Shown here piece by piece: positions 336-60,159 of a stretch of DNA of 64,000 nt. Each line of letters begins with the position of its first letter. Positions within the stretch are counted from its first letter, which is position 1. A program made the position numbers and the translations under genes. The notes beneath the pieces are model-generated. The model did no database searches. It was not told where the DNA came from and saw only the letters and a program-made list of their open reading frames with translations. Source of the DNA: a bacterium (lineage in GTDB: Bacteria > Zhuqueibacterota > Zhuqueibacteria > Residuimicrobiales > Krinioviventaceae); the NCBI GenBank assembly GCA_963674595.2, contig CAXXFV010000029.1:64001-128000 (forward strand), read 5' to 3'.

Positions 336-758
336 TATAAAAGACAATAGATACAAGCTTTAATATTAAGTAAAAACGGAAACAGATCAATAATAAACTG
401 AATATCCAGGCACACAAGTAACAGAAAAGTCTAAAAACACAGGTAACACTTTAACAAATAACAAAAAACTGCAATGGATTTTGCTCGCCCTGTGAATCTT
501 TCCCAGGGCGTAAATCAGGCGGTATAATTACCCCGATAAATTTAAGGTTTAATGATATGATCGCCCGAAAGTTCCTACCTCTGGCCGTAATAAAGTTTTA
601 ACGTATTATAGCTATAAATTTGGAATGTTTTATATAAAAGGGCAAAGCCCTTTCGTTAATCCGTCCAAGGGTATGAACCATTTGACGATAAAGTTTCCAT
701 CGGGGATATAATCCCGAATCCATTGGTTCCGCAAGGGATTTCAAATCCCCTGCGAGCG

Positions 759-1040
759 GTGACTGGATTCCTGCTTGCGCAGGAATGACAGGCTTCGATC
801 ACATTGTGTCCTTTGTGTGTTCTTTGTGTTCATTGTGGTAAAAAGATAACCATTAAAAAAAACCACAGCACAGAGCCGAAGGGTGACCGGATTCCTGCTC
901 TCGCAGGAATGACAGGTTTTGATCACATTGTGTCCTTTGTGTGTTCTTTGTGTTCATTGTGGTAAAAAGATAACCATTTAAAAAGCCTCAGCACAGAGCC
1001 GAAGGGTGACTGGATTCCTGCTTGCGCAGGAATGACAGGT
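759..1040. repeat. Tandem array (~124-bp period, about 2.3 units) of the GGATTCCTGC..GCAGGAATGAC palindrome plus the CTTTGTG-rich module
   Basis: Units start at ~759, ~883 and ~1006. Confidence 0.85.
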
Positions 1041-1144
1041 TTAGAATCCTCAGCGGTCCTCAGCGTTCTCTGCGCCTCTGCGTTTAAAGCATTTCTAAAT
1101 AGAACCACACCTTCCCCTCTCCCCCATTTTCCCGTATAAATAGC

Positions 1145-1173
1145 TTGCGCTAGTTCTGTATAATTTGTAATAT
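1145..1173 (+). promoter_or_regulatory. Repeated sigma70-like promoter, upstream of the DEAD helicase
   Basis: TTGCGC-17-TAATAT. Confidence 0.7.
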
Positions 1174-1295
1174 TCATGTGCCGCCATCTTTTAGGATCAG
1201 GTTATAACATTTACAGTCCAATTGATGACGCGGTGAAAATGAGCATCAAAAAACCAAAGAACAAAATTCTATATCTATAAAACAACGAGGTCCGA

Positions 1296-2759
1296 GTGAC
1301 AGATTCAAACAACAATGAAAATAAAGAACAACAGGAAAAACCGCCCGAGATAACGATCGAACAACTCCCCCCGGAACTGCGTGAAGCAGCAGGGCGCATA
1401 AAATGGTCAACCCTCACTCCTGTTCAGGCCCAGTCGATTCCACCCCTGCTTGAGAAAAAGAACATGATGATTCAGGCACGCACGGGCAGCGGCAAAACAG
1501 GGGCTTTTCTTCTCCCTATGCTCAAGGGGCTCGACGCGGAACAGAAGGTCTGCCAGGCCCTCATCCTGGTGCCGACCCGGGAGCTTGCGTCGCAGGTATG
1601 GCAGGAGGCCCAAATTCTATTCGGCGAAAACAGCTTGACGTGCACCGCTGTTTATGGCGGCGTGGGTTACGGCCAACAGATAGAGGCGTTGAAAAAAGGC
1701 GCCCAGATTGTTGTAGGAACTCCCGGCCGGGTGTTGGACCACTTGCTCAAACGTACCATGGATTTAAAACATTTAAAAGTGCTGATTTTTGATGAAGCGG
1801 ACCACATGTTGTCCATGGGGTTTTATCCTGATATGAAAAAACTCCAGACTCATTTGCCGAAACGCAAAATTCACACCTGCATGTTTTCAGCAACCTTTCC
1901 GTCTTTTGTAATGAGCGTTGCAAATCAGTTTATCCGCAACCCGGAATTCCTCAGTCTAAGCAGCGAACAGGTCCATGTTGCAGAGACGCAGCATGTTTAT
2001 TATATGGTTCCGGCAATGGACAAGGATCGCGGTCTGGTTCGTATTATCGAGGTGGAAAATCCGGCATCTGCTATTATTTTTTGCAACACCAAAGCCAACG
2101 TGGAATTTGTAACCATTGTGCTGCAACGTTTTGGTTATGATGCGGACGGCTTGACGTCCGACCTGACGCAACAAGCCCGCGAGCGGGTCTTGCAGCGTCT
2201 GCGAAAGGGCACACTGCGCTTTCTGGTGGCAACCGATGTCGCGGCCCGCGGCCTCGATATTCCGGAACTCTCCCATGTCATTCAATACGAAGCATCCGAT
2301 GACCTGGAGAGTTATATTCACCGGTCGGGCAGAACCGGACGCGCGGGGGCCAGCGGCACGGCAATAACCCTGGTGAGCCGATCTGAAATGCGGCTCATAA
2401 TTCGTATAGCAAACAAATATGACATTCCCCTGCAAGAGTGGCGCTTGCCTACAGACGATGACGTTGCAAAAATTGTCGCCCAGCGCCTGACCGCGCTTTT
2501 AGAGGCAAGACTCAGGGAACGCGATAAACTGCAAACGGAACGCAGTCTCAGGTTTTTGCCGCTCGCCAGGTCGCTTGCGGAAAATGAGGACGAGTCGGCG
2601 ATCATTACAATGCTTCTGGACGATTATTATCAGGAACAAATGCATGCCCCGCTGGTGCCGCTACAGGACATTCAACCGGCAGAAACAACATCGAATAAAA
2701 CCGGTCAGGGTCCGCGCAATAAAAAATACAGGCGCTATCGCCGCAAACCGAATCAATAG
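1296..2759 (+). CDS. DEAD-box ATP-dependent RNA helicase
   Basis: Q motif (TPVQ), ARTGSGKT, PTRELA, GG, TPGR, DEAD, SAT, ARGLD and HRSGRTGR motifs; basic C-terminal tail. Confidence 0.97.
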   Translation: MTDSNNNENKEQQEKPPEITIEQLPPELREAAGRIKWSTLTPVQAQSIPPLLEKKNMMIQARTGSGKTGAFLLPMLKGLDAEQKVCQALILVPTRELASQVWQEAQILFGENSLTCTAVYGGVGYGQQIEALKKGAQIVVGTPGRVLDHLLKRTMDLKHLKVLIFDEADHMLSMGFYPDMKKLQTHLPKRKIHTCMFSATFPSFVMSVANQFIRNPEFLSLSSEQVHVAETQHVYYMVPAMDKDRGLVRIIEVENPASAIIFCNTKANVEFVTIVLQRFGYDADGLTSDLTQQARERVLQRLRKGTLRFLVATDVAARGLDIPELSHVIQYEASDDLESYIHRSGRTGRAGASGTAITLVSRSEMRLIIRIANKYDIPLQEWRLPTDDDVAKIVAQRLTALLEARLRERDKLQTERSLRFLPLARSLAENEDESAIITMLLDDYYQEQMHAPLVPLQDIQPAETTSNKTGQGPRNKKYRRYRRKPNQ

Positions 2760-3259: not shown

Positions 3260-3320
3260 CATATCAATTGATCGCCCAAAGATTTCCGGGGCGAGCAAAA
3301 ATTAAAGGAAAGTAGCACAA

Positions 3321-4127
3321 ATGAATAAACGAATACTTTTTGTATTGATAGTGTGTTGTATGTTTTCATCTTTGTTGAATTCAATAAAAGCGCAAACGAA
3401 CTGCACATATTATTCAAAGAACAATTGTGATCAGGATCAGATTCTTGAATTACTTGATAGCTGTCCTTGTATTTATGATATAGATACAATCAAAGAATTT
3501 ATTATTAGATTATCAATTCCCGAAATAGAATTACCAAACTCTCTATTTGAAAATTCAATCGTTAGTAAAGTAATTATTGAAGAAAGTGGAGAAATAAATG
3601 CAATTTTATTAAGTAAATCAATCAATTCAAATGCAGATAGTCTACTTGTAAATTCAATATTAGAATCAAAATTTACTCAATATAAAGATACATCATATAC
3701 AAATACTAACTATTGTATTGCATTACCATATCATATACGAAACGGAAAAATCTTTTCATCCATTTATAGTCCAATAGATATAGTTCCATCACAAATGAAA
3801 AGATTAAAAGTAAATAGAAAAACATTTACCCAAACACAACTACCTGATGATACTCCACCTAAACCGATTGACGGTTTTGATGCTATTAAAAGAAATATTG
3901 AATATCCAATATCAGAAAGAGCAGCAGGAATTCAGGGAAAAGTTGTTATAAGAGTTGTTGTTGATGATATGGGAAATATAAGTTCATATCAAGTTTTAAA
4001 ATCTCCATCAAAGAAATTAGCAAAAGCTGCATACAAGGCAATTAAATCTGTAAAGTGGGTACCAGCAAAGCAGAATGGAAAGCCCATATCTGTGTGGGTA
4101 ACAATACCAATTTATTTTAAATTATAA
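3321..4127 (+). CDS. Energy transducer TonB C-terminal domain protein
   Basis: Signal peptide; C-terminal YP..ERAAGIQGKV...WVPAKQNGKPISVWVTIPIYFKL; very AT-rich. Confidence 0.85.
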   Translation: MNKRILFVLIVCCMFSSLLNSIKAQTNCTYYSKNNCDQDQILELLDSCPCIYDIDTIKEFIIRLSIPEIELPNSLFENSIVSKVIIEESGEINAILLSKSINSNADSLLVNSILESKFTQYKDTSYTNTNYCIALPYHIRNGKIFSSIYSPIDIVPSQMKRLKVNRKTFTQTQLPDDTPPKPIDGFDAIKRNIEYPISERAAGIQGKVVIRVVVDDMGNISSYQVLKSPSKKLAKAAYKAIKSVKWVPAKQNGKPISVWVTIPIYFKL

Positions 4128-4521
4128 TTGTTTAAAATATTGTTCACCTTGGGAATGTTTCCTGTGGCGCCAATCAGGCAAGGTATGTACACCGTTAAAT
4201 TTAAGGTTTTATAATTAATATGGACCCGTTATTTAAGAACGGATCAGGGCAATATGCCCTGTTTTATTTTACGGCCCGGAAAAGGAGTTCCGGGGCGAGC
4301 ATGGTTTTGCCGCACCATTGAGTATTTAATATATAAATAAATTCAGAGCCGTGTCACCCTGAGCGAAGTCGAAGGGTGACTGGATTCCTGCTTTCGCAGG
4401 AATGACGGGTTTTAAGCCCTTTGTGTGCTCTGTGACCTCTGTGAGAAAATATCCCTTCCCCATTTGCGTTTAAAGCATTTCTAAAAAAAATCACACCTTC
4501 CCCCATCTTTTTAAAAATCAT

Positions 4522-7049: not shown

Positions 7050-7210
7050 TTATAAACAATACGCTCGTCCCGGGATTCTACGTAAGGACGCATGAACACA
7101 AGGGCTGTGTCTTTTTACTTTATTCGAGGCAGGCGTCGAATCCAGTTTACCCAGTGGACTGACTTTACCTGTTAATTACATATAATTAATTATAACTTCC
7201 TGGAGGACTT

Positions 7211-7753: not shown

Positions 7754-8576
7754 TGCCCGGCCTTTCGACTCCGCTCAAAGCCCGGACTCTGTGGACGTTG
7801 AGCGAAGCCGAAGGGTGGCTGGATTCCTGCTTTCGCAGGAATGACGGGTTTCGATCACATTGTGTCCTTTGTGTATTCTTTGTGTCCGTTGTGGTAAAAA
7901 GATAACCATTTAAAAGTGATTCAATGCAGAGGTTGCAAAGGCGCGCAGAGGGAACCGAAATTTGCCCATCCTTAAAGCGGACGCTGCCCGGCCTTTCGAC
8001 TCCGCTCAAGGACCGGACTTTGCGGACGCTGAACGGAATCGAAGCGGGTGAACAGGGTAAAGCCCATTTTTATCTAGTATCCCGGAAAAAATTTTTAAGA
8101 TGATCAAACCATGCAGGGGTTAAAAATCTTTAACCGCTACACATATCAACTGAACGCCCAAAGATTTTGCTGACGCTGCAACTTCCTGTGGCGCACATCA
8201 GGCAAGGTATGTACACCGTTAAATTTAAGGTTTTATAATTAATATGGACCCGTTATTTAAGAACGGATCAGGGCAATATGCCCTGTTTTATTTTACGGCC
8301 CGGAAAAGGAGTTCCGGGGCGAGCATGGTTTTGCCGCACCATTGAGTATTTAATATATAAATAAATTCAGAGCCGTGTCACCCTAAGCGGAGTCGAAGGG
8401 TGACTGGATTCCTGCTTTCGCAGGAATGACGGGTTTTAAGCCCTTTGTGTGCTCTGTGACCTCTGTGAGAAAATATCCCTTCCCCATTTGCGTTTAAAGC
8501 ATTTCTAAAAAAAAATCATACCTTCTCCCCATCTTTTTAAAAACCATTTGCGCTGGTTCTGTAGAATTTGTATTAT
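7754..8576 (+). repeat. Composite REP module, copy 2 (uninterrupted, ~820 bp)
   Basis: Near-identical to the two halves flanking tonB. Confidence 0.9.
8548..8576 (+). promoter_or_regulatory. Repeated sigma70-like promoter, upstream of dut
   Basis: TTGCGC-17-TATTAT. Confidence 0.7.
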
Positions 8577-9481: not shown

Positions 9482-12280
9482 ATGAAAAATAATATAAATC
9501 AAAATCCGGAACAAATCGCCAGAGACAAAATAGACAAGATGCTCATTGATGCCGGGTGGATAGTACAATCCAAATCAAAAGTAAATTTATCAGCAAAAAA
9601 AGGTGTGGCGGTACGAGAATATTTGACAGACATTGGACCTGCTGATTATGTATTATTTGTTGACCGAAAGCCCGTAGGTGTTATTGAAGCAAAGCGGGAA
9701 GAAGAAGGTGTTCGCTTAACAGTCCATGAAGATCAGGCCGAGTCCTATGCTAAAAGCAAACTCAAACATTTAAACAACGATCCACTGCCATTTGTATACG
9801 AAAGCACCGGCACTTTAACACGCTTTACCAATCACAGAGATCCCAAGCCACGCTCACGGCCTGTTTTTAGTTTTCATCAACCTTCAACGTTGGAAGAATG
9901 GATTAAAAGGCCGGATACGCTGAGAAGCAGGCTTCAAAGAATGCCCGGCCTAATTGAAGACGGATTACGCCCGGCACAAAAGGAGGCCATTAAAAAACTT
10001 GAGGTTTCCTTTAAAGACAATCGTCCAAAAGCATTAATTCAAATGGCAACAGGTTCAGGTAAAACATTTACGGCCTGCACGTTTGTCTATCGATTATTAA
10101 AACATGCGGATGCAAAGCGGATTTTGTTTCTGGTTGACACCAAAAATCTTGGCGAACAGGCAGAACAGGAATTTCTTAAATATCTGCCCAATGATGACAA
10201 TCGAAAATTTACAGAACTGTACAATGTTCAGAGACTCTGTTCAAGCTATATCGCTTCCGACAGTCAGGTTTGCATCAGCACAATTCAACGGCTTTATTCC
10301 ATCCTTCAGGGCAAAGAGCTGGATGAAAAGCTTGAGCAGGAAAACCCGAATGAAAAATTCTGGCAGAAAAAGGAACCGATGCCGGTTGCATACAGTCCCA
10401 AAAACCCTGTAGAACAATTTGATTTTATTATTGTTGATGAATGCCACCGTTCCATTTATAATTTATGGAAACAGGTGCTGGAATATTATGATGCCTTTTT
10501 GATCGGGCTTACAGCAACCCCGGATAAACGAACGTTTGGATTCTTTGATGAAAACGTGGTCAGCGAATACACCTATGAAGACTCTGTTACGGATGGTGTG
10601 AATGTCCCTTATGATGTTTTTACCATTGAAACCAAAATCACAAAAAACGGCGCAAAGATTAAAGCCAAAGAATATGTGGACAAGAGAGAAAAACTGTCAC
10701 GCAGAAAACGTTGGGAACGGCTTGATGACGATTATGAATATACAGCGAAAAAATTGGATAACGATGTTGTCAATCCAAGCCAAATTAGAAACATAATCAA
10801 AGCGTTTAAAGATTGTTTGCCCACGATCTTTCCGGACCGGTTTGATGAAAATGGAGAGTTTGAAATCCCTAAATCATTGATATTTGCCAAAACAGACAGC
10901 CATGCGGATGATATCATCCAAATAGCCCGGGAAGAATTTGCCGAAGGCAATGATTTTTGTAAAAAAATAACCTATAAAATTGATGATGACCCCAAATCTA
11001 TCTTGAACCGGTTCCGCAATAGCTGGGCACCGCGAATTGCCGTAACAGTGGATATGATTGCCACCGGCACGGATGTAAAACCATTAGAAGTCCTGCTTTT
11101 TATGCGGGATGTAAAAAGTATCAACTATTTTGAGCAAATGAAAGGACGCGGTACAAGGACCATCAGTTTTGATGATTTGAAACGCGTCACCCGGACAGCC
11201 AAACATCAAAAAACACATTTTGTAATTATTGATGCCGTTGGTGTTGTCGAATCTAAAAAGACAGACAGCCGCCCGCTTGAGCGCAAGCGGTCTGTTCCTT
11301 TAAAAGATTTATTAGACGCTGTGGCAATCGGCGCACAGGATGAAGACCTGTTTTTATCACTTGCAAACCGGTTGATTCGCCTGGATAAACAGCTTACCAA
11401 AGATGAAAAAATAAAATTTATGGAAATGTCTGACGGCAAACAAATAAACCAGGTGGTAAAAGCGCTGTTAAACGCATACAATCCCGACATTATTGAATAT
11501 AAATCAAAAGAATTGATTAATAACAAACCAAAGCTGGACAGAACACCGGCTTTTGAAGATGCCTGCCGACAACAGGCGCAGGAAGAACTGGCAACACTGG
11601 CTGCCTCCGCCTTTAATGGTGAAATAAACGAGTATCTTGAAAATGTGCGCAAAGTTCATGAGCAGATTATTGATATGATAAATCAGGACAAGGTAACCAA
11701 AGCCGAATGGAACAGTTACACCAAAGACACAGCAAAAAAAGTGGTTAAAGACTTTGGTGAATATCTGCAAAAGCACAAAGATGAAATTAAGGCGCTCTCT
11801 ATTTTTTACAGCCAGCCCTATCAACTGCGGCAGCTTACTTTTAAAATGATTAAAGAGGTTTTGGAAAAACTGAAACTCGATAAACCGTTACTGGCGCCAA
11901 ATTATGTGTGGGATGCCTATGCACAGTTGGAAGCAGTAAAAGGAAACAGCCCCAAAAATGAACTGGCGGCATTGGTTTCTCTTATTCGCCGGGTAACAGG
12001 TCTGGATGAAACATTAACATCATACGACAGCACGGTAAACAGAAATTTTCAAACCTGGGTATTTAAAAAGCATTCTGGTGCAGGGGATAAATTCACAGAA
12101 GAACAGATGGAATGGCTGCGAATGTTAAAAGACCATATTGCCACCAGTTTTCATATTGAAGTGGATGATCTGGATTATACGCCATTTGATGCACAGGGCG
12201 GCAGGGGCAAAATGTACCAGTTGTTTGGAGATGATATGAATATTATAATTGATGAACTGAATGAGGCATTGGCGGCGTAG
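9482..12280 (+). CDS. hsdR: Type I restriction enzyme R subunit (EcoAI/EcoEI-like)
   Basis: ADYVL...IEAK nuclease motif, MATGSGKT, DECH, LTATP, QMKGRGTR; EcoEI-type C-terminus. Confidence 0.95.
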   Translation: MKNNINQNPEQIARDKIDKMLIDAGWIVQSKSKVNLSAKKGVAVREYLTDIGPADYVLFVDRKPVGVIEAKREEEGVRLTVHEDQAESYAKSKLKHLNNDPLPFVYESTGTLTRFTNHRDPKPRSRPVFSFHQPSTLEEWIKRPDTLRSRLQRMPGLIEDGLRPAQKEAIKKLEVSFKDNRPKALIQMATGSGKTFTACTFVYRLLKHADAKRILFLVDTKNLGEQAEQEFLKYLPNDDNRKFTELYNVQRLCSSYIASDSQVCISTIQRLYSILQGKELDEKLEQENPNEKFWQKKEPMPVAYSPKNPVEQFDFIIVDECHRSIYNLWKQVLEYYDAFLIGLTATPDKRTFGFFDENVVSEYTYEDSVTDGVNVPYDVFTIETKITKNGAKIKAKEYVDKREKLSRRKRWERLDDDYEYTAKKLDNDVVNPSQIRNIIKAFKDCLPTIFPDRFDENGEFEIPKSLIFAKTDSHADDIIQIAREEFAEGNDFCKKITYKIDDDPKSILNRFRNSWAPRIAVTVDMIATGTDVKPLEVLLFMRDVKSINYFEQMKGRGTRTISFDDLKRVTRTAKHQKTHFVIIDAVGVVESKKTDSRPLERKRSVPLKDLLDAVAIGAQDEDLFLSLANRLIRLDKQLTKDEKIKFMEMSDGKQINQVVKALLNAYNPDIIEYKSKELINNKPKLDRTPAFEDACRQQAQEELATLAASAFNGEINEYLENVRKVHEQIIDMINQDKVTKAEWNSYTKDTAKKVVKDFGEYLQKHKDEIKALSIFYSQPYQLRQLTFKMIKEVLEKLKLDKPLLAPNYVWDAYAQLEAVKGNSPKNELAALVSLIRRVTGLDETLTSYDSTVNRNFQTWVFKKHSGAGDKFTEEQMEWLRMLKDHIATSFHIEVDDLDYTPFDAQGGRGKMYQLFGDDMNIIIDELNEALAA

Positions 12281-13546
12281 ATGAGAGAAGATTGGATTGA
12301 AGCAGAATTAGGGGAAATTTGTAATATAAATATGGGGCAGTCTCCTCCATCAACAACATATAATGATAGGGGTGATGGACTTCCATTTTTTCAAGGAAAA
12401 GCTGAATTTACTTTACTTCACCCAAAAGTTAAAAAATGGTGCAATAAACCAAAGAAGATTGCTGAAGTTGAAGATATTCTTTTATCTGTTAGAGCGCCTG
12501 TTGGAGCGACTAATATAGCAAATGTGAAATGCGCAATTGGTCGGGGATTAGCCGCGATATCATATAAGCCCTGTATGCTTTTTGTTCTCTACTTTTTAAA
12601 ATTGATAGAAAAAAAATTAGATGAACAAGGTACAGGAACAACTTTTAGAGCAATATCGGGTGCTATACTTAAATCCCAAAAAATTCCTCTGCCCCCTCTC
12701 CCTGAACAACGCGCCATCGTCGCCAAAATAGAAGAATTATTTAGTGAGTTAGACAACGGCATTGCCAACCTGAAAGCGGCCAAAGACAAACTGGAAATCT
12801 ACCGCCAGGCTGTTTTAAAAAAAGCGTTTGAAGGAGAATTGACAAATACAAAAAATATTGAATGGATTACTCTCGGTGAAGTTTGCGATAATGTAGAATA
12901 TGGGACTTCTTCTAAATCAGATAAGGAAGGACAAGTTCCTGTATTACGAATGGGTAATATTCAAAACGGTAAGTTTGATTGGCAAGATTTGGTTTTTACA
13001 AGTGATAAAGAAGAAATTAAAAAATATAAATTACACAAGGATGATGTTTTATTCAACAGAACAAATAGTCCTGAATGGGTCGGAAAAACAGCAATATATA
13101 AAGGTGAAAGGCCAGCAATCTTTGCTGGCTACTTGATTAGAGTTAATTATAAGAAAGATTTAATTGATGGTGATTACCTAAACTATTATTTGAATTCACA
13201 TACAGCTAAAAAATGGGGTAATAAAGTAAAAAGTTTTGGAGTCAATCAAGCAAATATCAATGGTACTAAATTAAAAAAATATCCATTTCCACAGACATCT
13301 TTACAAGATCAAAAAGAAATTGTCATTGAAATCGAAACCCGTCTCTCTGTCTGCGACAATATCCAAAAAAGCATTGATGAAAATTTACAAAAAGCTAAAG
13401 CCCTGCGCCAAAGCATATTAAAAAAAGCATTTGAAGGCAGGTTGCTGAATGAAGAGGAATTAAAAGCCTGCCGCCTGGAACCGGACTGGGAACCGGCAGA
13501 AGAACTGTTGAAACGAATTAAAGATGAAAAGAAAGCCAAAGCATGA
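12281..13546 (+). CDS. hsdS: Type I R-M specificity subunit
   Basis: Two target recognition domains separated by PLPPLPEQ...LKKAFEG conserved regions. Confidence 0.95.
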   Translation: MREDWIEAELGEICNINMGQSPPSTTYNDRGDGLPFFQGKAEFTLLHPKVKKWCNKPKKIAEVEDILLSVRAPVGATNIANVKCAIGRGLAAISYKPCMLFVLYFLKLIEKKLDEQGTGTTFRAISGAILKSQKIPLPPLPEQRAIVAKIEELFSELDNGIANLKAAKDKLEIYRQAVLKKAFEGELTNTKNIEWITLGEVCDNVEYGTSSKSDKEGQVPVLRMGNIQNGKFDWQDLVFTSDKEEIKKYKLHKDDVLFNRTNSPEWVGKTAIYKGERPAIFAGYLIRVNYKKDLIDGDYLNYYLNSHTAKKWGNKVKSFGVNQANINGTKLKKYPFPQTSLQDQKEIVIEIETRLSVCDNIQKSIDENLQKAKALRQSILKKAFEGRLLNEEELKACRLEPDWEPAEELLKRIKDEKKAKA

Positions 13547-15184: not shown

Positions 15185-16681
15185 ATGGAATTTAACAGAC
15201 GCAATTTTATCAAAACGGTCGGTATGGGCGCCCTGTCATCAGGATTAGCAGGATTTCTGCAGTCGTGCGCTAAACAATCGTCCCCGCCCAATGTGATATT
15301 CATCCTGTCCGATGACCTCGGCTATGGCGACTTGGGCTGCTATGGGGCCACACATTTTGAAACACCCGCCTGCGACCGTCTTGCCAATGAGGGCATGCGC
15401 TTTACGGACGCCCATTCAGCCTCTGCCGTTTGCAGTCCCACCCGTTACTCTGTGCTGACCGGGCGTTATAGCTGGCGCAGTTGGCTTAAAAACTGGGTGC
15501 TTATGGAAAACCATCCCCTGTTGATTGATACGGACCGGCTCACCATGGGTAAAATGTTCCAAAAGGCCGGTTACACAACCGGATGTATCGGTAAATGGCA
15601 CCTGGGCTGGGGCACGGACCTGAATACCGATTTCAGCGGCGAGGTCAGTCCCGGACCATTAGAAGTGGGATTTGACTCGTTTTATGGTGTTCCATTCAGC
15701 CACAACAGTTCCAAACCGCTGCAGGTATTTATACGCGACCGGCATATCGAGAACCTGAAAAACGGACTCAAGTATAACAGCGAAGAGGCCATGAAAGATA
15801 CGGTCCGCGAGCTGGAGGACACGGCCATTGATCTTTCCAAAGAGGCTGTTGCATTTGTAGAGCGGAACAAAGACAAACCGTTCTTTCTCTATTATCCCAC
15901 CACCAACATACACTTTCCCCTGACGCCCAACAGCCGTTTCAAGGGCGCTTCAAACGCCGGCGTTTACGGTGACTTTGTCGTCGAGTTTGACTGGGCGGTG
16001 GGTCAGCTTCTCGATGCACTGGACCGCAACAACCTCACCGACAATACAATAGTCGTGCTCACCAGTGACAACGGCGGACGGCCCGACCCGGACATGCACG
16101 GCCACAAATGTAACGGGCCCTGGCGCGGCACCAAAAGGCAGATATACGAAGGCGGCCACCGGATACCCCTGATTGTGCGCTGGCCGGGTAAAGTTGAAAA
16201 AGGCTCCACCTCTAACGAGACGGTCTGTCTCACAGATTTTTTTGCCACTTTTGCCAATTTGCTTGACCAGCAGCTTCCTGAAAATGCCGGTGAAGACAGT
16301 TATGACCTGACGAACCTGTTGCAGGGCAAACGTTATGAACAGCCGCTGCGTGAGGCCACGGTTCATCACTCTGTGTCCGGGCAATTCGCCATACGCAAAG
16401 GCGACTGGAAACTGATAGAAGGCAGCGGCAACGGTGATTTTCCCAGGGATGCGGAAAACCACATCGATATAAAAGTGAGGAATCCCGAAAAGGACCCGGA
16501 AACCGGTAAATGGAGCAAAATGGATTACTTTTTGTTAAAGCCCGACGGAGAATTCCAGCTTTATGACCTGAAAAATGATCCTGCGGAGGAACACAATCTC
16601 GCTGAAAAGCGCCCCGACAAAGTTAAGGAATTATATGCCCTGTTGAACCATTACCGTTCAGGTAAAAGATCAGCGTCATAA
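15185..16681 (+). CDS. Arylsulfatase-family sulfatase with Tat signal (probable lipoprotein)
   Basis: NRRNF Tat motif, DDLGYGD, CSPTR, GKWHLG, SDNG; start placed at ATG 15185 after GGAG. Confidence 0.93.
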   Translation: MEFNRRNFIKTVGMGALSSGLAGFLQSCAKQSSPPNVIFILSDDLGYGDLGCYGATHFETPACDRLANEGMRFTDAHSASAVCSPTRYSVLTGRYSWRSWLKNWVLMENHPLLIDTDRLTMGKMFQKAGYTTGCIGKWHLGWGTDLNTDFSGEVSPGPLEVGFDSFYGVPFSHNSSKPLQVFIRDRHIENLKNGLKYNSEEAMKDTVRELEDTAIDLSKEAVAFVERNKDKPFFLYYPTTNIHFPLTPNSRFKGASNAGVYGDFVVEFDWAVGQLLDALDRNNLTDNTIVVLTSDNGGRPDPDMHGHKCNGPWRGTKRQIYEGGHRIPLIVRWPGKVEKGSTSNETVCLTDFFATFANLLDQQLPENAGEDSYDLTNLLQGKRYEQPLREATVHHSVSGQFAIRKGDWKLIEGSGNGDFPRDAENHIDIKVRNPEKDPETGKWSKMDYFLLKPDGEFQLYDLKNDPAEEHNLAEKRPDKVKELYALLNHYRSGKRSAS

Positions 16682-16771
16682 AAGGGCCAAGCCCTTTCGG
16701 TAATCCGTATAAGGGTAGAGAACATTTGGACGATCAAAATGAATCTAATAAATAGGGAGGATAATTACATT

Positions 16772-17362: not shown

Positions 17363-17420
17363 AGGGATGAAATCCCGAATTCATTGGTTCCGCAGGGGAT
17401 TGCATATCCCCTGCGAGCGG
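17363..17420 (-). repeat. CGCTCG-footed two-hairpin unit (CAGGGGAT..ATCCCCTG subfamily)
   Basis: Copies at 701-759 and 21976-22032; partial at ~45355 and ~47427. Confidence 0.8.
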
Positions 17421-17465
17421 AGAATTGCCCAAATGTAAAAGAATGGAAAGTAAAGGTTTAAGCTT

Positions 17466-17975: not shown

Positions 17976-18562
17976 TAAATTTTTTATCGCCCAAAAATTC
18001 TGCCACATCTGGAACTTCCCTGGGCGCAAATCAGGCGGGGTATTTACCGGGATAAACCCAAGGTTTAATAATATAAGCATTAATATAGGCCCGTTATTTG
18101 AGAACAGATCAGGGCAGATGCCCTGGTTTATTTAAAGGGCAAAGCCCTTTCGTTAACCCGTCCAGGGGTAGAGAACCCCTGGACGATCAAACAATCAGCA
18201 GCAGGGGCCTTTCGACTTCGCTCAAGGACCGCAAATTACCCAACCTTGAAGCGGACGCTGAGCGGAGTCGAAGCGGGAGCAGAGTAACCATGTCATCCTG
18301 AGCGGAGTTAAAGGGTGGGCGTGGGGTAACACCAAATGGTTTTGCAGCTTTAAATTAAACATCAAATTCATTCAATAATAATGTTATGAGTAAGAAAATA
18401 TCTTGTAAAGAAGATAAAAAAGTATTATCTATTGTTATTATATATAGGTCTAACCAAGGTTGATGGATTTGAACAATAGAACATATACAATCGTTAGGCA
18501 GCACCTGATAATGGAGGTTCAGTATATTACATTTTTGATGTGATTTTCTGTATATTAATTGC

Positions 18563-21963: not shown

Positions 21964-22119
21964 ACTTTTGGGATAGGGGATGAAATCCCGGTTTTATTGG
22001 TTCCGCAGGGGATTTCCAATCCTCTGCGAGCGGAGGCGTTTAGGCGGTTTTTGATGCCCTGCTGTTTTTATTAATTATCAACCTCTGCCCTACCCTCACC
22101 TATTTTTCTCAAAAACCAC

Positions 22120-24174: not shown

Positions 24175-24261
24175 ATGAAAGAAGGATTGATCGTCCCGGG
24201 ATTCTACCCTGGAACGTAATAACATAAGGGCTTGGTTCTTTAAATGTGCCAGAGAAAAATC

Positions 24262-24810: not shown

Positions 24811-24916
24811 AGCTTACTTTTCGTTGCTTTGCCAAGTTTGATCGTCCCGGAATTTTATCCCTGGACTCCAAATAAATCAGGGCTTACTGCCCTCCCCCAT
24901 TTTTCTCAAAAACCAC

Positions 24917-31121: not shown

Positions 31122-31131
31122 TATTACAAGT

Positions 31132-31184
31132 TGATCGTTCCGGGGTTCTGCCCCGGAACGGATTAACAAGAGGGCTTGGCCCTC
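31132..31184 (+). repeat. TGATCG-footed two-hairpin unit (example copy)
   Basis: TGATCGTTCCGGGG-TTCTG-CCCCGGAACG, linker, AGGGC-TTG-GCCCT; copies at 558, 7061, 24188, 24838, 32670, 45111 and reversed at 639-690, 16682-16736, 18135-18189, 50417-50469, 60102-60154. Confidence 0.85.
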
Positions 31185-31265
31185 CGACTTGTTCTTTGAA
31201 TAATTGTAAACTGGATTCTTGTTTTCGCAGGAATAACAGGTTTCAATCTTTGATATTATAAAAAT

Positions 31266-32585: not shown

Positions 32586-32753
32586 GTATTTTTTGAGAAA
32601 TATTCTGGATGTTTTAAGAGGCGTCATCCTGTGCGGCTCCAAAGCGGACGCTGAGCGGAGTCGAAGGATTGATCATTCCGGGATTCTACCCCGGTACGGA
32701 TTAAAAAGAGGGCTTGGCCCTCCATAAAAACCCTCATTTTCCTTATAAAACAC

Positions 32754-35482: not shown

Positions 35483-35805
35483 TAAAATATAAAATTTAAT
35501 ATCATTAAGTATATGATTCTTTACTAGTCGTTTGCTCCATCGGGAAATCTTCATAGGGGCGGAATTAGGCGGGATAATTACCCAGATAAACGAAAGGTTT
35601 AATGTTGTAAATATTAATATGGGTCCATTATTTAAGAATTGAACAGGGTATATGCCCTGGTTTATTAAATCTCAGAGAATACCCCGGTTCCGCTCGGGAT
35701 GACGTGTAGATGGATTAAAAGCGGTGTTACCCTGAAGCGAAGACAAAGAGTGCCTGGATTCCTGCTTTCCCCCAAATAACAGGCTTCGATCTATATTGAT
35801 ATTAT

Positions 35806-43437: not shown

Positions 43438-43891
43438 GTAGAAATAGACCTAATCACCACGGAGGGATTGAGACATTTAACCACATTGCCATCATTTTTG
43501 AAAGCAAAAACTTCATGTAGAAATAGACCTAATCACCACGGAGGGATTGAGACAGTATCCACTTTGTTTGTTGTATAAGGACGTGGCACTTGCCGTAGAA
43601 ATAGACCTAATCACCACGGAGGGATTGAGACGTAAATACGAGCATCTGATAACAGATTAAGCCTTAATCTATGTGGAAATAGACCTAATCACCACGGAGG
43701 GGCCGTTTGCGGCAGGTTCGAAAATATTGTTCTTTATAAAGTGTTTTGCAATGTTACAGAAGCCATAACCTATGGTAAGCGTCCTTGCGTCGCTATGCTC
43801 CGCTGAGATTGAGAACTAATAAAAACGAATCAAAGAAAGACCTGATCACCACGGAGGGGCCGTTTGCGGCAGGTTCGGGAGTATTGTTCTT
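43438..43891 (+). CRISPR. Orphan CRISPR array: 3 perfect 37-bp repeats, 3 spacers of 41-42 bp, 2 degenerate terminal repeats
   Basis: GTAGAAATAGACCTAATCACCACGGAGGGATTGAGAC at 43438, 43517 and 43595; partial copies at 43673 and ~43835; unique spacers; no cas genes in the window. Confidence 0.93.
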
Positions 43892-44062
43892 CTGCTCTAC
43901 TTGGGAATCTTTCCCAAGGCGCAAATTAACCGGGGTATTTACCCCGATAAACCCAAGGTTTATTGATGTAAATAATAATATGGGCCCGTTATTTGAGAAC
44001 TGATCAGGGCAAAATGCCCTGGTTTATTTAACGCCCCGGAAAAGGAATTCCGGGGCGAGCAA
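43892..44062. mobile_element. ~170-bp REPIN/MITE-like doublet made of two inverted two-hairpin units
   Basis: Starts (C/T)TGCTC.. hairpin and ends hairpin ..GGGGCGAGCAA; copies at 4140-4301, 8165-8324, ~18000-18135, 35531-35667, and reversed at 52202-52350 and 54279-54460. Confidence 0.75.
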
Positions 44063-45087: not shown

Positions 45088-45580
45088 ATTTTTATATGAT
45101 AATAAAAAACTGATCATCCCGGGGCTTTACCCTGGGACGTAATAAACCGAGGGTTTGGCCCTCCAACTTGGTGAACGATTATAGTCTGTGCCCATTTTCA
45201 GCCTTAAGCTGTTGTTCTACCGCACCATTGTGTGATTAATTCAAAAATCAATTCAGCTTTAACGCAGAGGCCGCAAAGGTGCGCAGAGGAAACCGGGAAC
45301 AAAATAAACTTAAAGCGGACACTGAGCGGAGTAAAAGCGAGGTACTTTTGGGATGGGGGATAAAATCCCGGTTTTATTGAGCGGAAAAATATTTTATATG
45401 TAAAGTTAAAAAAATAATGTAAATTCTATATGGATTCCTTATTCGTCAAGTGACAAGGTAAACAGAATTTAATTGTTTATCCAAATTCTCTTACTTTCAT
45501 TGTCGGCCCGGTTAAATGCTAAATGATGCATAAAATAAACCCTAATATTTTTTCACAATTAAAAAGTAGCGAGGTGAAAA

Positions 45581-46174: not shown

Positions 46175-46444
46175 GTATGTTTAGTTGGTCACCCTGTCCG
46201 GCAAGCCTGCAGCAAAAGTTGATTCTGGTGGTACTTTCGTCCTTAAGCCCTACACTGTGACGTAATAAACTGAGGGCCAGGCCCTCCAACTTTTTGAATA
46301 ATTGCAGGCTGTGCCCATTTTTAGGTCCCGGCAACAGACTAAAATTTGGTACAGAAAAGTTGGGTTTAATGGAATGAACAACTTACAACTGAATGCAGTC
46401 ACTGTAAATATAACTAAAATAAAACCATGTTAGAGTTTTAGAAT

Positions 46445-47296: not shown

Positions 47297-47675
47297 ATTA
47301 GACAAAAGTTACTCGCAGGCTGCGCCCATTTTCAGCCGCAGGGTTTGGTTCTACTGCACCATTGTGTTAAAATTAAATTCAAAAAAGTGTCACCTTGAGC
47401 GGAGTAGAAGGGTGATACTTTTGGGATGGGGATGAAATTTCGGTTTTATTGGTTCTGCGGGCTATGCCTTCCTATATGCACAAAACTGGCATGTCATACA
47501 CTGACATAAAATAGCATTTTTCCCTTCTTTGTGATCTCCGTGCCCTTTGTGAGAAAAAAGTTACACCGTTCCTCAAATTTCACCCCCCCTTTCCCAAAAT
47601 CCAACAATAAATTGGGTTGCATTCCAGCTTAAAATCTTTTATTTTATTTAAATTTTTTAAGAGGAGGATGCAACG

Positions 47676-50361: not shown

Positions 50362-50525
50362 GTATTTTTAACCACAAAGGTCAGAGCATACACTATGGAC
50401 ACAAAGAAGAAATAAAAGGGCACAGCCCTTGAATTAATTCGTCCACCAGTAGGATCCCATAGACGATCGATTTATTTCGGAAGGCACTAACTTACATTTG
50501 TCCTTTCTTAAGGAGGTTATTTATC

Positions 50526-52201: not shown

Positions 52202-52630
52202 GTTAAATAAACCGGGACATTTTGGCCCGATCAGTTCTTAAATAACGGGCCTATATTAATATTGACATTATAAAACCTTAAATTTATCGGGGTAAATACC
52301 CTGCCTGATTTGCGCCCTGAAAAAATTTTAGGGTCAGTAAAATCTTTGGGCGATTAATTGATATGTGTAGGGATTAAAAATTTTTAACCCCTACATGGGT
52401 TGATCGTCTTGTAAATTTCATCCAGGATACTAGATAAAAATGGGCTTTACCCTGCTCCCGCTTCGGCTTCGCTCCCGCTTCGACTCCGCTCAGCGTCCGC
52501 TTCAAGTATGGGCCTTGAGCAGAGCCGAAAGAGGTCCTTGAGCGGAGCCGAAAGGCAGATCAGGGTGACACCGGTCTGACTTTTTTTAGATTAATCTCAA
52601 TATGGTATGGTAGAACAGCCCCCTTACGGC
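52202..52630 (+). repeat. ~430-bp direct repeat, left copy
   Basis: Near-identical to 54308-54741. Confidence 0.92.
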
Positions 52631-54219: not shown

Positions 54220-54307
54220 GTGGTTTATCAGAAAATGGGCAGGTGTTTATTGGGGGTAAAAGCCCTGACTATTTGGCTTTGCTCGCACTGGAAATATTTT
54301 CCAGTGC

Positions 54308-54741
54308 GTTAAATAAACCGGGACATTTTGGCCCGATCAGTTCTTAAATAACGGGCCTATATTAATATTGACATTATAAAACCTTAAATTTATCGGGGTA
54401 AATACCCTGCCTGATTTGCGCCCTGAAAAAATTTCAGGGTCAGTAAAATCTTTGGGCGATTAATTGACATGTGTAGGGATTAAAAATTTTTAACCCCTAC
54501 ATGGGTTGATCGTCTTGTAAATTTCATCCAGGATACTAGATAAAAATGGGCTTTACCCTGCTCTGCTCACCCTTCGGCTTCGCTCCCGCTTCGACTCCGC
54601 TCAGCGTCCGCTTCAAGTATGGGCCTTGAGCAGAGCCGAAAGAGGTCCTTGAGCGGAGCCGAAAGGCAGATCAGGGTGACACCGGTCTGCTTTTTTTTAG
54701 ATTAATCTCAGAATGGTATGGTAGAACAGCCCACTTACGGC
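54308..54741 (+). repeat. ~430-bp direct repeat, right copy
   Basis: Near-identical to 52202-52630. Confidence 0.92.
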
Positions 54742-56880: not shown

Positions 56881-57095
56881 AACCTATCCTTTTTTGTCTG
56901 AATTTTGATGAATGAATTGTTTGTATCATGTTCCGGTTGAAAATATTTGCTCGCCCTGGAAAAGTTCCAGGTTCAGCAAAATCTTTGGGCGATTAATTAA
57001 CATGTGTAGGGGTTAAAAATTTTTAACCCCTACATGGTTTGATCGTCTTGTAAATTTCATCCGGAATACTAGATAAAAATGGACTTTACCCTGCT

Positions 57096-57248
57096 CACCC
57101 TTCGGCTTCGCTCAGGATGAGGACACCCTTCGGCTTCGCTCAGGATGAGGACACCCTTCGGCTTCGCTCAGGATGAGGACACCCTTCGGCTTCGCTCAGG
57201 ATGAGGACACCCTTCGGCTTCGCTCAGGATGAGGGCACCCTTCGACTC
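57096..57248. repeat. Tandem repeat, 28 bp x 5 plus a partial unit
   Basis: CACCCTTCGGCTTCGCTCAGGATGAGGA at 57096, 57124, 57152, 57180 and 57208. Confidence 0.95.
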
Positions 57249-57353
57249 GGTCCTTGAGCGGAGTCGAAAGGCCGCTCAGCGTCCGCCTGTAATCCGATCA
57301 TATAAATGAATCTATCACAGGTCAGAACCCGGGACGATCAGCTTTTCTTTTAA

Positions 57354-58454: not shown

Positions 58455-58791
58455 AATTTCCTTTTCCGTATTTTTAAAAATCTCCAGCTTAACATTTACA
58501 GGTTTGAAAAGACAAATTTTCAGAGGGATTTAATTCCATCAACCTCCTTATTTTTTTAAGCATCGGTGAAATAAAATTTTTCGGTTTTATTACAAGGAAA
58601 TATGGCGGAATATAATAAAATCAAAAATAAAACAAAACGGAATATTATACTTGTTTTCAAAATAGATTGAACTATTGATATTATAACTTTGGTATATTTT
58701 CGATGAGTTGGTTTCGTTCGAGGTGTACACCCCCCTTTCACCGGCAGCCAGGGCCAAGTTTACAAAGATATGCAGCCGATAGTTTGCACCA

Positions 58792-59400
58792 TCATTGCAT
58801 TGGCTGACGAAGGACGGTTTTCCAGTTTTTGGGATCCGCCTTTCTGATGTCGCTCAAATAAATTTCGTGATGTTTACCAATCAGCCTACTTTTGGTATTT
58901 ATGAATTCATGTATTTTCTCAATGTTGGGTCTTTCTTCTGAAAACGGTCCGATATGAAGTATCTGAGCGCACTTTCCCTCTGAAAATGATTCGAAACGAA
59001 TTTTCGAAATGGCAGCCGGGTTTTTCTTTTTTGTCACTTCTGAAACAGAGGTATCAATCATTTCACGGGTAACAAAATCAGGCTGCATTATCATGAGTGT
59101 CCATTTCCAATTGGATTTATCATGTATCGAAAATTTGGACATGTCGTCTGCCCACCATAGTCCTTCAAGGGGCATCACTCCGTAATCCAAAGCCATCTCC
59201 CCTTTTTTTATTTTAAATTTGACTGTGTAGGAAACGGCAAACAATGCCGCAACAGCATCGGAAAATTCTTTGGAATTGTTTGGATCGCCTTTGCCGTCCA
59301 CCATTAAATAATTCATCGTCGGAACATCGACCTGACTGACCTTTTTTGCTGATGGCTTGTATAAATGTTTCAACTCTTTTTTAAAATCGATTTTATTCAT
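58792..59400 (-). CDS. GyrI-like small-molecule-binding domain protein
   Basis: KIDFKKELK.LY, G.GDPN, PLEGLWW, HIGPF and HHEIYLSD; start after GGAG. Confidence 0.88.
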   Translation of the reverse strand: MNKIDFKKELKHLYKPSAKKVSQVDVPTMNYLMVDGKGDPNNSKEFSDAVAALFAVSYTVKFKIKKGEMALDYGVMPLEGLWWADDMSKFSIHDKSNWKWTLMIMQPDFVTREMIDTSVSEVTKKKNPAAISKIRFESFSEGKCAQILHIGPFSEERPNIEKIHEFINTKSRLIGKHHEIYLSDIRKADPKNWKTVLRQPMQ

Positions 59401-59595
59401 ATCTTCTCTCCTTTTTAAGGCCGCCGACATGGTTTTAATATATTCATAGGGTAATAATTTCAACGACCAAATTTAGTTACTTGTTCCTGAATTTAGTCAC
59501 TATTCGCCCCGGACGGGTAATTCTTCGGCTTTGCTTTGCTCAGGATGACACAGATCGACTTAACACAGGAACCCAGATGACCAAGGCATATCACT

Positions 59596-60042
59596 GCGGC
59601 TCTGCGTTGAATAAGAAAATTATAAACGAAAATTATCTTATAATTTTTAACCACAAAGGTCACAAAGAATAATAATTTACATATCAACACAAATTTAAAC
59701 GTGTCATTCTTTAAGAATCCTGCCGGGATAAAGACCCGATTCAACGTCAGGAAAGATGCCTCCAGCATGACATGTTGGTTTTTTTGTTGTAAAAAAGTCA
59801 GAAATTAGATTATTTTCAGAAATTCCTTTGCGGCTCTGCGTTAAATAAGAAAATTATAAATGAGAATTATCTTATATTTTTAACCACAAAGGTCACAAAG
59901 AATACACAAAGGACACAAAGAATAATACTTTTTATTTCAACACAAATTTAAACGTGTCATTCTGTAAGAACCTTGCCGGGATAAAGACCCGATTCAACGT
60001 CAGGAAAGATGCCTCCGGCATGACATGTTGGTTTTTTTGTTT
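59596..60042. repeat. Tandem duplication (~200-bp units, ~234-253-bp offset) of a REP mosaic
   Basis: 59596-59790 versus 59830-60042. Confidence 0.85.
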
Positions 60043-60159
60043 AAATACATAACAGTCTGAAAAACCGGAATCCAGCTTACAATTATTTAAAGGAAAAGTC
60101 GAAGGGCCAAGCCCTCCTGTTAATCCGTTCCGGGGTAGAATCCCGGAACGATCAAACAA

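Follow-up and report, generated by a model that had tools for sequence, protein, structure and literature searches.

The window analyzed here, a 64,000-nt stretch of contig CAXXFV010000029.1, contains intergenic repeat units in which a short foot is followed by two hairpins (hairpins 1 and 2). Together with decayed copies, half units, and copies reduced to hairpin 2, the units make up 37 entries, all intergenic, which were chosen by eye, mainly out of 71 BLAST clusters, leaving out opposite-strand echoes and weak matches. The >30 copies given in the initial annotation are reached only with these degraded forms, whereas a strict scan for the foot and hairpin 1 finds 11. The entries are divided between the plus (18) and minus (19) strands, and a replication-strand bias was therefore rejected. 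Since ~37 units would cover ~3% of the window if each were full length, the family shapes the intergenic space of this genome. The units, assigned to subfamilies A to D and an E type, are as follows (bits are model scores).

480..538, plus: D unit with GCTC foot, hairpin 1, and weak hairpin 2 (9/10 pairs; model R1, 20.4 bits)
635..693, minus: B unit, decayed in hairpin 1 but intact in hairpin 2 (BLAST cluster; R1, 26.4 bits)
703..757, minus: C unit with GCTC foot, GGGAT-type stems, and 14-nt linker (pairing scans; missed by R1)
3270..3296: double-foot hairpin, a central deletion in a composite block that joins a half unit to the outer arm of an A end (alignment)
4142..4300: inverted doublet D(+)...A(-) of 159 bp without a gene, feet pointing outward, D decayed (A, 22.5 bits)
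7060..7117, plus: B unit, decayed, foot 14 nt past a stop codon (13.2 bits; E, 0.11)
8052..8106, minus: E-type unit, decayed, within a five-copy composite block, ends approximate (BLAST cluster, alignment)
8166..8324: doublet D(+, partial)...A(-), near-identical to 4142..4300 (BLAST cluster, R1)
16679..16738, minus: B unit occupying a 57-bp intergenic gap, hairpin 1 decayed (28.5 bits)
17364..17418, minus: C unit, intact (pairing scan, folding)
17999..18135: doublet D(+, partial)...A(-, hairpin 2 only) (BLAST cluster)
18132..18191, minus: B unit, intact, abutting a truncated A end (57.3 bits; folding)
21977..22031, minus: C unit (pairing scans, descriptor)
24186..24243, plus: B unit, foot 15 nt past a stop codon (38.7 bits)
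24837..24897, plus: A/B hybrid, partly decayed (26.2 bits)
31130..31187, plus: B unit, intact, foot 12 nt past the stop codon of a peroxidase (katG-like) gene (65.1 bits; folding)
32668..32725, plus: B unit (42.1 bits)
35534..35669: doublet D(+, decayed)...A(-, hairpin 2 only) (BLAST cluster)
43894..44060: gene-less doublet D(+)...A(-), best preserved, 167 bp (16.1 and 31.8 bits)
45109..45166, plus: B unit, foot 25 nt past a stop codon (45.9 bits)
45350..45379, minus: C remnant, hairpin 2 only (BLAST cluster)
46232..46289, plus: B unit, decayed, hairpin 2 intact (8.5 bits, not significant)
47422..47461, minus: C remnant (BLAST cluster)
50413..50471, minus: B unit, hairpin 1 decayed (28.9 bits)
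52202..52338: doublet A(+, hairpin 2 only)...D(-) (BLAST cluster, alignment)
54281..54444: doublet A(+, intact)...D(-), 164 bp (A, 24.8 bits; alignment)
56949..56977: second double-foot hairpin, D hairpin 1 fused directly to an A-type foot (alignment)
57315..57339, minus: B unit reduced to foot and left arm, 15 nt past a stop codon (BLAST cluster)
60099..60156, minus: B unit, intact, foot 7 nt past the stop codon of a 93-aa ORF (53 bits)

The five stems quoted in the initial annotation were located (foot G at 31133 and 54281 on the plus strand and at 18188, 44060, and 17418 on the minus strand), and the geometry that it described is largely borne out. Hairpin 1 has the form CG-N21-23-CG (25 to 27 nt) and hairpin 2 is short (5 to 7 bp, with only 4 bp in one D copy); the linker, given as ~10 to 14 nt, measures 8 to 14 nt. 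The 23 footed copies agree with the proposed foot (T/C)G(A/C)T: a pyrimidine at position -1 (23/23), G (22/23), A or C (23/23), and T (23/23). The consensus foot is YG[AC]TC, and the canonical REP tetranucleotide GT[AG]G is absent from it. The strict scan (foot plus CG..CG, at least 9 of 10 Watson-Crick pairs) found its 11 matches against a mean of 0.05 and a maximum of 1 in 20 order-1 Markov sequences. A descriptor that left both sequence and foot free (9-bp stem, 7 to 16 nt, 5-bp stem) gave 13 matches, every one on these units, versus 0 to 1 in five null sequences; nine were foot oriented, each preceded by YG[AC]T, and four came from the opposite strand. DNA folding of five window units gave z scores of -3.7 to -7.2.

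Further palindromic families are also present in the window. An exact match to an Rfam family, which the initial annotation had wanted checked, was not found: the Rfam scan of the window gave no match above the gathering threshold, and only the A unit at 44060 overlapped a weak, unrelated subthreshold match. Scans of the window for tRNA and tmRNA returned nothing, and BLASTN against plasmids gave no real match for a unit of B or C or for a D-A doublet.

Elsewhere, the unit was found next to a transposase gene. A GTDB scan with a pattern derived from the B unit gave 12 loci in 10 contigs, four of which (L004, L009, L011, and L012) were dropped as GC-rich chance matches within long ORFs. Three of the six kept contigs are labeled KSB1. 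In two of the six (L001 and L006) the unit precedes a Y1 tnpA (three genes), and a second, inverted unit, outside the scan pattern, lies at the 3' end of each gene. The initial suggestion of a link to HUH Y1 enzymes is thereby supported: copies of the unit lie inverted on either side of a gene for a REP-associated tyrosine transposase. The element spans 680 to 682 bp from GATC to GATC, its sole gene encodes an HUH Y1 transposase of 183 to 184 aa, and its order is foot, hairpin 1, hairpin 2, tnpA, hairpin 2, hairpin 1, foot, the right-hand set being inverted. The left hairpin 2 lies ~30 nt ahead of the tnpA ATG, and the loop of the right one holds the stop codon. These flanking units recur elsewhere, both in L006 and in the window. 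The elements of L001 and L006 share 75% identity, and homology stops sharply at the foot. No conserved base was seen outside the ends beyond the pyrimidine bias at -1. GATC as a target site duplication was rejected, because GCTC-footed ends read GCTC...GAGC, inverted and not direct; a related L006 region without the left end is also without the foot. The guide-based cleavage rule of Marinomonas (A|T or A|C beside a TGAT foot) fits one L006 junction and was not accepted; A at position -2 shows no enrichment (2/23 in the window, 4/14 outside).

The L001 and L006 enzymes scored 96.5 to 104.2 bits with the NCBIfam model for REP-associated tyrosine transposases (NF047646; cutoff, 80) and at most 25.2 bits with the IS200 TnpA model (NF033573; cutoff, 55), and they do not have the class 1 Y---Q motif. 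Pfam identified only Y1_Tnp, with no C-terminal HTH. The L001 enzyme (184 aa) carries THMH/WQ/YMHDNP/WKYSS, and enzyme P0022 (181 aa; 61 to 64% identical to the L001 and L006 enzymes) has intact motifs (THIH/WK/YLHNNP/WKYSS); the same pattern, with variants, extends across 113 homologues, most of which have 19 to 23 residues beyond the SS motif. This is the motif signature of subclass 2.6 (NH[LIV]H, WQ, YIH[QN]NP, and SS tail; median, 179 aa), with clade-level replacement of N by T and of Q by H or K. Subclass 2.6 is also marked by ~21 additional residues, predicted to be helical, that are inserted between helix C and strand 4 (PMC6006769); aligned with E. coli RayT, the element enzymes likewise show an insertion, and the AlphaFold model of P0022 predicts an extra helix at 98 to 107 (pLDDT 94). 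With this model, the top Foldseek match was E. coli TnpA-REP (4ER8; E, 1e-7). Residues E100, H101, and R104, which contact GTAG, are not conserved. In a FastTree phylogeny, the L001 and L006 enzymes group in a clade of their own (support, 0.978); they are 34 to 39% identical to their closest Bacteroidota homologues. A Bernardetia plasmid enzyme is 34% identical to them (E, 1e-35), compared with 21 to 23% for E. coli RayT; both ends of its tnpA consist of a foot, 10 bp, 11 nt, and 5 bp, and its hairpin matches a Table S1 row for subclass 2.6. The two-hairpin design was seen in two of five plasmid homologues (L014 and L015, both missed by the strict descriptor); L013, L016, and L017 carry other repeats. 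TBLASTN against phages with the transposase gave no match.

Compensatory changes in the stems, as claimed initially, were supported both by the outside ends and by the window. In 14 ends from outside the window, 93% of stem cells are paired (slid controls, 42 to 55%), and 25 cells changed on both sides versus 10.1 after shuffling (0/500 shuffles); pair-count measures gave no gain over shuffles (279/500 and 314/500). Across 10 distinct window stems, 84/90 cells are Watson-Crick pairs, compared with 60.4 after shuffling; the shuffle P values overstate the covariation, because the copies were partly picked by pairing and are related to each other. Stem bases thus vary while foot, stem length, and linker stay constant, which would be consistent with recognition of the unit by structure. 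A covariance model trained only on the 14 outside ends (R1) recovered 16 window units at E < 0.03, from subfamilies B, A, and D, but none of the three full C copies; it also missed the Bacteroidota ends in L013 to L017. The claim of a single architecture therefore stands for the geometry but not for one model. We infer that the L001/L006 clade includes A, B, and D, and subfamily C probably has another enzyme of subclass 2.6.

Within the window, neither tnpA nor a remnant was detected (Pfam; best HMM E value, 0.84). P0022 would be a candidate for the cognate enzyme in the same genome, its entry and that of window protein P0266 giving an equal figure for the longest contig, 248,599. The 93-aa ORF beside the last unit (60160 to 60441), which we take by eye to be GIY-YIG-like, had no Pfam or NCBIfam match; it was rejected as the cognate enzyme, because it adjoins only 1 of 37 units and no comparable gene was seen at the outside loci that were kept. 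What the window does contain is seven D-A inverted pairs, some partial, the best of which are 159 to 167 bp long and gene-less; in the pair at 43894 to 44060, both hairpins fold at the A end, and hairpin 1 is kept at the D end. Gene-less inverted doublets also occur in L003, L005, and L010, and GATC and GCTC feet stand side by side in L005. A tnpA tail in the D-A spacer was considered on the basis of a suggestive I/N-x-x-x-L-F-E spacing; the search was not significant, ranking the spacers of three of the seven pairs 126th to 148th of 127,922 positions and the other four far lower. The two double-foot hairpins arose by independent central deletions, a product type already described for REPs; that at 3270 to 3296 folds at z = -3.5, while its pattern alone is not significant (1 found versus 1.06 expected).

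The initial annotation could not assign the repeats to a described family, but a placement is possible, since the enzyme bears the signature of subclass 2.6 and Table S1 of Quentin et al. 2018 (PMC6006769) lists similar feet and hairpins. The units are very probably the REP-type ends of a subclass 2.6 TnpA-REP (RAYT group 5) element, and the window holds its gene-less derivatives. These would comprise single units next to inverted doublets, decayed remnants, and the double-foot products of deletion. By analogy with the TnpA-REP proteins of E. coli, Stenotrophomonas, and Marinomonas (PMC8266576), a TnpA supplied in trans would bind the foot and hairpin 1 when the DNA is single stranded, nick near the unit through a 5'-phosphotyrosine link, and rejoin the nicked end to other nicked single-stranded DNA, so that units could be copied, moved, or deleted. 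Hairpin 2, at a fixed spacing of 7 to 11 nt in A, B, D, and the outside ends, may be a second recognition determinant, perhaps read by the 2.6-specific extra helix; alternatively, its positions relative to the tnpA start and stop codons suggest that it might tune tnpA expression.

A doubtful but serious alternative is that the 680-bp element is a self-mobile insertion sequence, the window doublets being MITE-like deletion derivatives and not REPINs of a sedentary RAYT. Its near-constant length in two genomes and the end of homology at the foot would fit, as would the two L006 copies, 96% identical (tnpA, 96.7%), whose ends match at 28 to 29 of 30 nt inside and 8 to 9 of 30 outside. However, a distance of 1.46 kb separates these copies on one contig of a metagenome assembly, and the surrounding region also carries a ~250-nt segmental repeat and orphan ends; they could therefore reflect local recombination or an assembly error. 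In L001 the left end truncates the upstream gene ~20 codons short of three homologues, but the cut gene does not resume beyond the right end in any frame, and there is thus no clean empty site. Five doublets folded on both strands formed local hairpins and no single long REPIN hairpin, as this alternative would have it; against it, the tnpA remnant in the spacer is not significant, the literature describes RAYTs as unable to replicate themselves, and group 5 is described as lacking a high duplication rate. If the unit does move itself, it is an exception to that view. A broader version, which we consider unlikely, makes the clade a still-mobile intermediate between IS200/IS605 and domesticated RAYTs, in which the insertion sequence moves itself and spawns gene-less doublets, with bipartite foot-hairpin-hairpin ends whose hairpin 2 is required across part of subclass 2.6; it would then be the first REP-type system with defined ends whose full transposition cycle could be reconstituted.

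It is improbable that unrelated families converged on the two-hairpin shape. Palindrome self-correction is a known mutational route, and the paired changes could also come from template-switch repair instead of selection by one recognizer; the position of C outside R1 and the other palindromic families in the window agree with this. Nevertheless, one externally trained model fits A, B, and D, the two feet coexist in L005, and foot, stem length, and linker are constant despite changing stem bases. Least probable of all is that the repeats persist chiefly because they act as RNA elements (terminators or 3'-untranslated-region stabilizers) spread by general recombination, with covariation reflecting RNA structure: their intergenic placement and the position of the feet (of 30 footed units, 11 have the foot no more than 30 nt from a gene, against 4.3 expected, P ~1.5e-4; 11 of the 15 within 65 nt at 3' ends) would suit it, but in the part of the window from 15 to 33 kb no hairpin 1 was called terminator-like, the five hairpin 2 calls have mixed orientations (27 sites versus 17.9 ± 4.5), a separate classic terminator follows the B unit at 31133, no Rfam family matches, and the link to tnpA ends is left unexplained. 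Co-option as RNA elements after insertion is possible.

Overall, we regard the repeats as REP/REPIN-like and as belonging to a transposase subclass already known, with a foot other than GTAG and with hairpin 2 in addition. The enzymes share [TNS]H[LIVM]H, W[QH], Y[MI]HxNP, the YSS tail, and a length of ~180 aa with subclass 2.6/RAYT group 5 (PMC6006769, PMC5581495). Table S1 gives subclass 2.6 REPs likewise non-GTAG feet (GCTC, GCTA, GCTG, and GTTC), with "atypical" hairpins flanking the gene; by eye, its Flavobacterium indicum row resembles subfamily A, and its Runella row, as the reverse complement, resembles C. None of the subclass 2.6 rows examined records a foot, hairpin, linker, and second hairpin, and we found no record of a second hairpin for subclass 2.6 in the literature searched; if hairpin 2 is needed, REP definitions for this subclass are incomplete. 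The lineage here, as judged from one homologue search, is KSB1-like and not Bacteroidota, and the parent element has sharp ends and a near-identical duplicate.

With GTAG REPs, REPINs, and TnpA-REP (PMC8266576, PMC3337134) the family shares the foot 5' of a hairpin, outward-footed inverted doublets, intergenic placement, composite clusters, double-foot or long-palindrome deletion products, and the enzyme fold (4ER8), but the foot is G[AC]TC instead of GT[AG]G. Of the REPIN features of Bertels and Rainey, two inverted REPs with a spacer are present, but one long hairpin is not. CGTC feet, cited initially as a precedent for Y1 recognition, provide none, since PMC3733652 reports CGTC repeats without a link to transposase genes. 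TIRtrons/TIRYTs (Di Nocera et al. 2013, PMC3733652) also have a tyrosine transposase gene between inverted ends, as well as gene-less repeats, and some ends there are "double palindromic" or overlap the gene end; TIRYTs are mostly subclass 2.1 with a C-terminal HTH, absent from the 183-aa proteins here, and the likeness drawn here is one of layout. IS200/IS605 elements (IS608, ISDra2) share the HUH Y1 fold, subterminal hairpins with a 5' tetranucleotide, and a compact multicopy element, but have Y---Q where the present enzymes have the class 2 Y-x-H-x-N-P and no tnpB; the ends here are inverted, with two hairpins each. The copying of REPs and REPINs is still called poorly understood in PMC8266576, and biochemistry in the literature searched covers only groups 2 and 3 (GTAG). 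The family offers a matched non-GTAG set, in which a 183-aa enzyme comes with gene-less doublets, deletion products, and two ends that show natural compensatory variation, and a compact parent element with which the spread of such repeats could be tested.

The window has a GC content of 40% and 42 predicted genes, is ~75% coding, and has intergenic regions filled with repeats; one of its housekeeping proteins (a single marker) has its nearest named homologues in Calditrichaeota and candidate division KSB1, with 66% to 74% identity. The hairpin stems quoted in the initial annotation were present at their positions. A scan for a G[AC][TA]C foot and a CG..CG hairpin in which 9 or more of the 10 pairs are Watson-Crick found 11 copies, compared with 0.05 in Markov nulls, and a sequence-free two-hairpin descriptor gave 13 matches, every one on these units, versus 0 to 1 in five nulls. 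BLAST with intact copies yielded 71 clusters, and from these and the intergenic sequences 37 entries, all of them intergenic, were chosen by eye. Because this set mixes full, decayed, and partial units, the annotated count of more than 30 copies stands with remnants included (37 entries) but not for near-perfect copies alone (11). There are four subfamilies: A and D with a GCTC foot, B with a GATC foot, and C with a GCTC foot, GGGAT stems, and a 14-nt linker. In four B units (635 to 693, 16679 to 16738, 46232 to 46289, and 50413 to 50471), the pairing of hairpin 1 is lost and hairpin 2 is intact, an asymmetry between the two hairpins.

A single GTDB scan with a pattern derived from subfamily B gave 12 loci on 10 contigs. 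Four contigs were discarded as GC-rich matches within long ORFs; three of the six kept are titled KSB1 and three "bacterium." Gene-less inverted pairs of ~109 to 135 bp are found in L003, L005, and L010, and L002 has a solo unit. In the remaining two contigs, once in L001 and twice in L006, a unit lies directly upstream of an ORF of 183 to 184 amino acids and a second unit is inverted over the stop codon. This full element extends from GATC to GATC over 680 to 682 bp; the two L006 copies are 96% identical, and their flanks match at 8 to 9 of 30 positions. The ends are sharp, with homology extending no farther than the G of the foot; the preceding base is a pyrimidine in all 23 window copies and in 10 of the 14 outside ends. 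In L001, the match of a gene of no known function (3635 to 4057) to three homologues ends within 1 to 2 codons of the left foot of the element, and its final ~20 codons are missing. Self-mobility of the 680-bp unit would fit the sharp ends, the L006 duplicate, and the cut gene in L001, but the duplicate is surrounded by a local segmental repeat and no empty site was found for the L001 element, and we regard self-mobility as rather unlikely.

The ORFs between the inverted ends link the units to tnpA, scoring above the NCBIfam cut-off for REP-associated tyrosine transposases and below that for IS200. There were 113 homologues at an E value of ≤1e-20 among 136 candidates and 5,260 representatives at ≤0.001. 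The L001 and L006 enzymes fall in a clade of 29 (support, 0.978) in a FastTree phylogeny of 142 sequences, comprising 25 close homologues, 108 more distant ones, and 9 locus proteins. P0022, a homologue 61% to 64% identical to these enzymes, has intact motifs and a confident structural model, which matches 4ER8 first and then the TnpA proteins of ISDra2 and IS608. No tnpA was identified in the window with Pfam and HMM searches; the candidate cognate gene, P0022, would be located elsewhere on the same contig. At the right end, hairpin 2 carries the tnpA stop codon inside its loop (L001, 4627 to 4639; L006, 4626 to 4637 and 6086 to 6097). Several tnpA homologues have C termini reading EG or GAEAP/RAKP, and these protein ends would be compatible with read-through into the right-end hairpin 2.

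The stems covary. Among 10 distinct intact stems in the window, 84 of 90 cells were Watson-Crick pairs, versus 60.4 after column shuffling, a significance that is overstated since the window copies are related and were partly picked for pairing; alternative pairs occur at stem positions 3, 4, 5, 6, and 9. In the 14 outside ends, 93% of the cells were paired (42% to 55% in slid controls), and both-side changes were seen in 25 cells versus 10.1 in shuffles (0 of 500); neither of two pair-count measures exceeded the shuffles for these ends. Hairpin 2 has a single compensatory pair, G-C in left ends and mostly A-T in right ends. A covariance model built from the outside ends only (R1) recovered 16 window units at an E value of <0.03, of which nine belong to B, five to A, and two to D; A, B, and D are thus one family. 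The model recovered no C units in the window and no Bacteroidota ends. The single architecture proposed for several of the families accordingly stands as one model for A, B, and D, and C has only geometry in common with them.

D and A units form inverted pairs of 159 to 167 bp with their feet outward (seven occurrences, including partial pairs), and folding of these doublets gives local hairpins. A larger block, in which a D-A pair is accompanied by a decayed unit and a GTAG palindrome, is present in five copies in the window; the centre is gone in two of them, and the deletion products left over are double-foot hairpins (3270 to 3296 and 56949 to 56977). The GTAG double-foot palindromes of this block (3231, 52367, 54473, and 57006, plus a decayed copy near 8110) are located between the facing feet of two two-hairpin units.

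The foot side lies within 30 nt of a gene in 11 of 30 footed units, versus 4.3 expected from uniform placement (p ~1.5e-4), and the tail side does so in only two; feet-out doublets at cluster edges may account for part of this bias. Genes 3321 to 4127, 17466 to 17975, and 44140 to 45087 and L006 gene 4728 to 5456 each lie between two feet that point toward the gene, in a cassette-like manner. Defence- or mobility-type genes are placed singly between repeat clusters (9482 to 15030, 16739 to 19546, 22429 to 24174, and 44140 to 45087), with Pfam assignments to type I restriction-modification, Imm26, DUF4304, RelA/SpoT-domain, GmrSD, and DUF4268 proteins.

It is highly probable that the doublets, singlets, and deletions result from a subclass 2.6 TnpA acting in trans, which would bind the foot and hairpin 1 on single-stranded DNA, nick it through the catalytic tyrosine (Y140 in P0022), and rejoin the ends. 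Hairpin 2 could act as a second recognition element; alternatively, it could control tnpA. A role of the units at the RNA level is unsupported as their origin and may be secondary.

Further palindromic families share the same gaps throughout the window (e.g., 2866 to 2918, 18223 to 18260, and 57068 to 57275). The additional repeats and one ORF are as follows.

GAGCGGAGTCGAA-type motif: 29 matches, including a 28-nt tandem of six
GCAGGAATGAC-type motif: 10 matches
GTCATGCCGGAGGC-type motif: 4 matches
CACAAAG-type repeats: 15 matches
60160 to 60441, minus strand: ORF of 93 amino acids

We take the first three types to resemble CGTC-type repeats. The ORF has a GIY-YIG-like start, as judged by eye, and had no match in Pfam or NCBIfam. 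A repeat of 66 to 86 nt (1145, 4522, 8548, 22120, 24917, 32754, and 41139, all on the plus strand) lies 5' of unrelated genes and frequently has a ~150-nt extension; judged by eye, its core is promoter-like, with -35/-10-like spacing. This repeat may act as a portable promoter or mark where another element ends. A mini CRISPR-like array (43438 to 43700 and ~43836; three 37-nt repeats, spacers of 41 to 42 nt, a degenerate fourth repeat, and a fifth remnant) stops immediately to the left of the D43894-A44060 doublet. Its Rfam CRISPR-DR8 score (24.7 bits) is under the cut-off of 39, and Pfam identified no cas genes in the window.

According to the available parts of Quentin et al. 2018 (PMC6006769), subclass 2.6 has the motifs NH[LIV]H, WQ, and YIH[QN]NP, an SS tail, and a 21-amino-acid insertion, and its genes are flanked by "atypical" structures. 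The enzymes described here have these motifs with small deviations and lack the GTAG-contacting residues E100, H101, and R104. In Table S1 of that study, subclass 2.6 feet include GCTC, GCTA, GCTG, and GTTC, and the subclass 2.6 rows are single hairpins except for a small number of long multi-stem entries; judged by eye, subfamily A is similar to the F. indicum row and subfamily C to the reversed Runella row. The Bernardetia plasmid tnpA of L015 has a foot, 10 bp, 11 nt, and 5 bp at both ends, with a hairpin matching the F. litoralis row, and L014 has a similar foot and two-hairpin unit upstream; the design is absent from three of the five plasmid homologues. Two different such units are found near subclass 2.6-type tnpA genes on Bernardetia plasmids (L014, 1335 to 1385; L015, 1247 to 1290 and 1346 to 1400).

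From the parts available, Bertels et al. 2017 (PMC5581495) report group 5 to be without a high duplication rate, Bertels and Rainey 2011 define REPINs and long-palindrome excision products, a preprint (bioRxiv 10.1101/2021.07.10.451892) describes RAYTs as unable to self-replicate, and Corneloup et al. 2021 set out the chemistry of cleavage in groups 2 and 3, with no mention of group 5 or 2.6. The literature searched, mostly outside subscription journals, yielded no account of this two-hairpin family, no report on KSB1 repeats, and no record of subclass 2.6 REPs with a second hairpin. Two-hairpin ends have a precedent in the double-palindromic terminal inverted repeats (TIRs) that the accessible text of Di Nocera et al. 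2013 (PMC3733652) places beside tyrosine transposases. The repeat family is real and well supported, of the subclass 2.6 REP/REPtron type in a poorly studied lineage, and with an IS-like parent element, REP mobility becomes testable.
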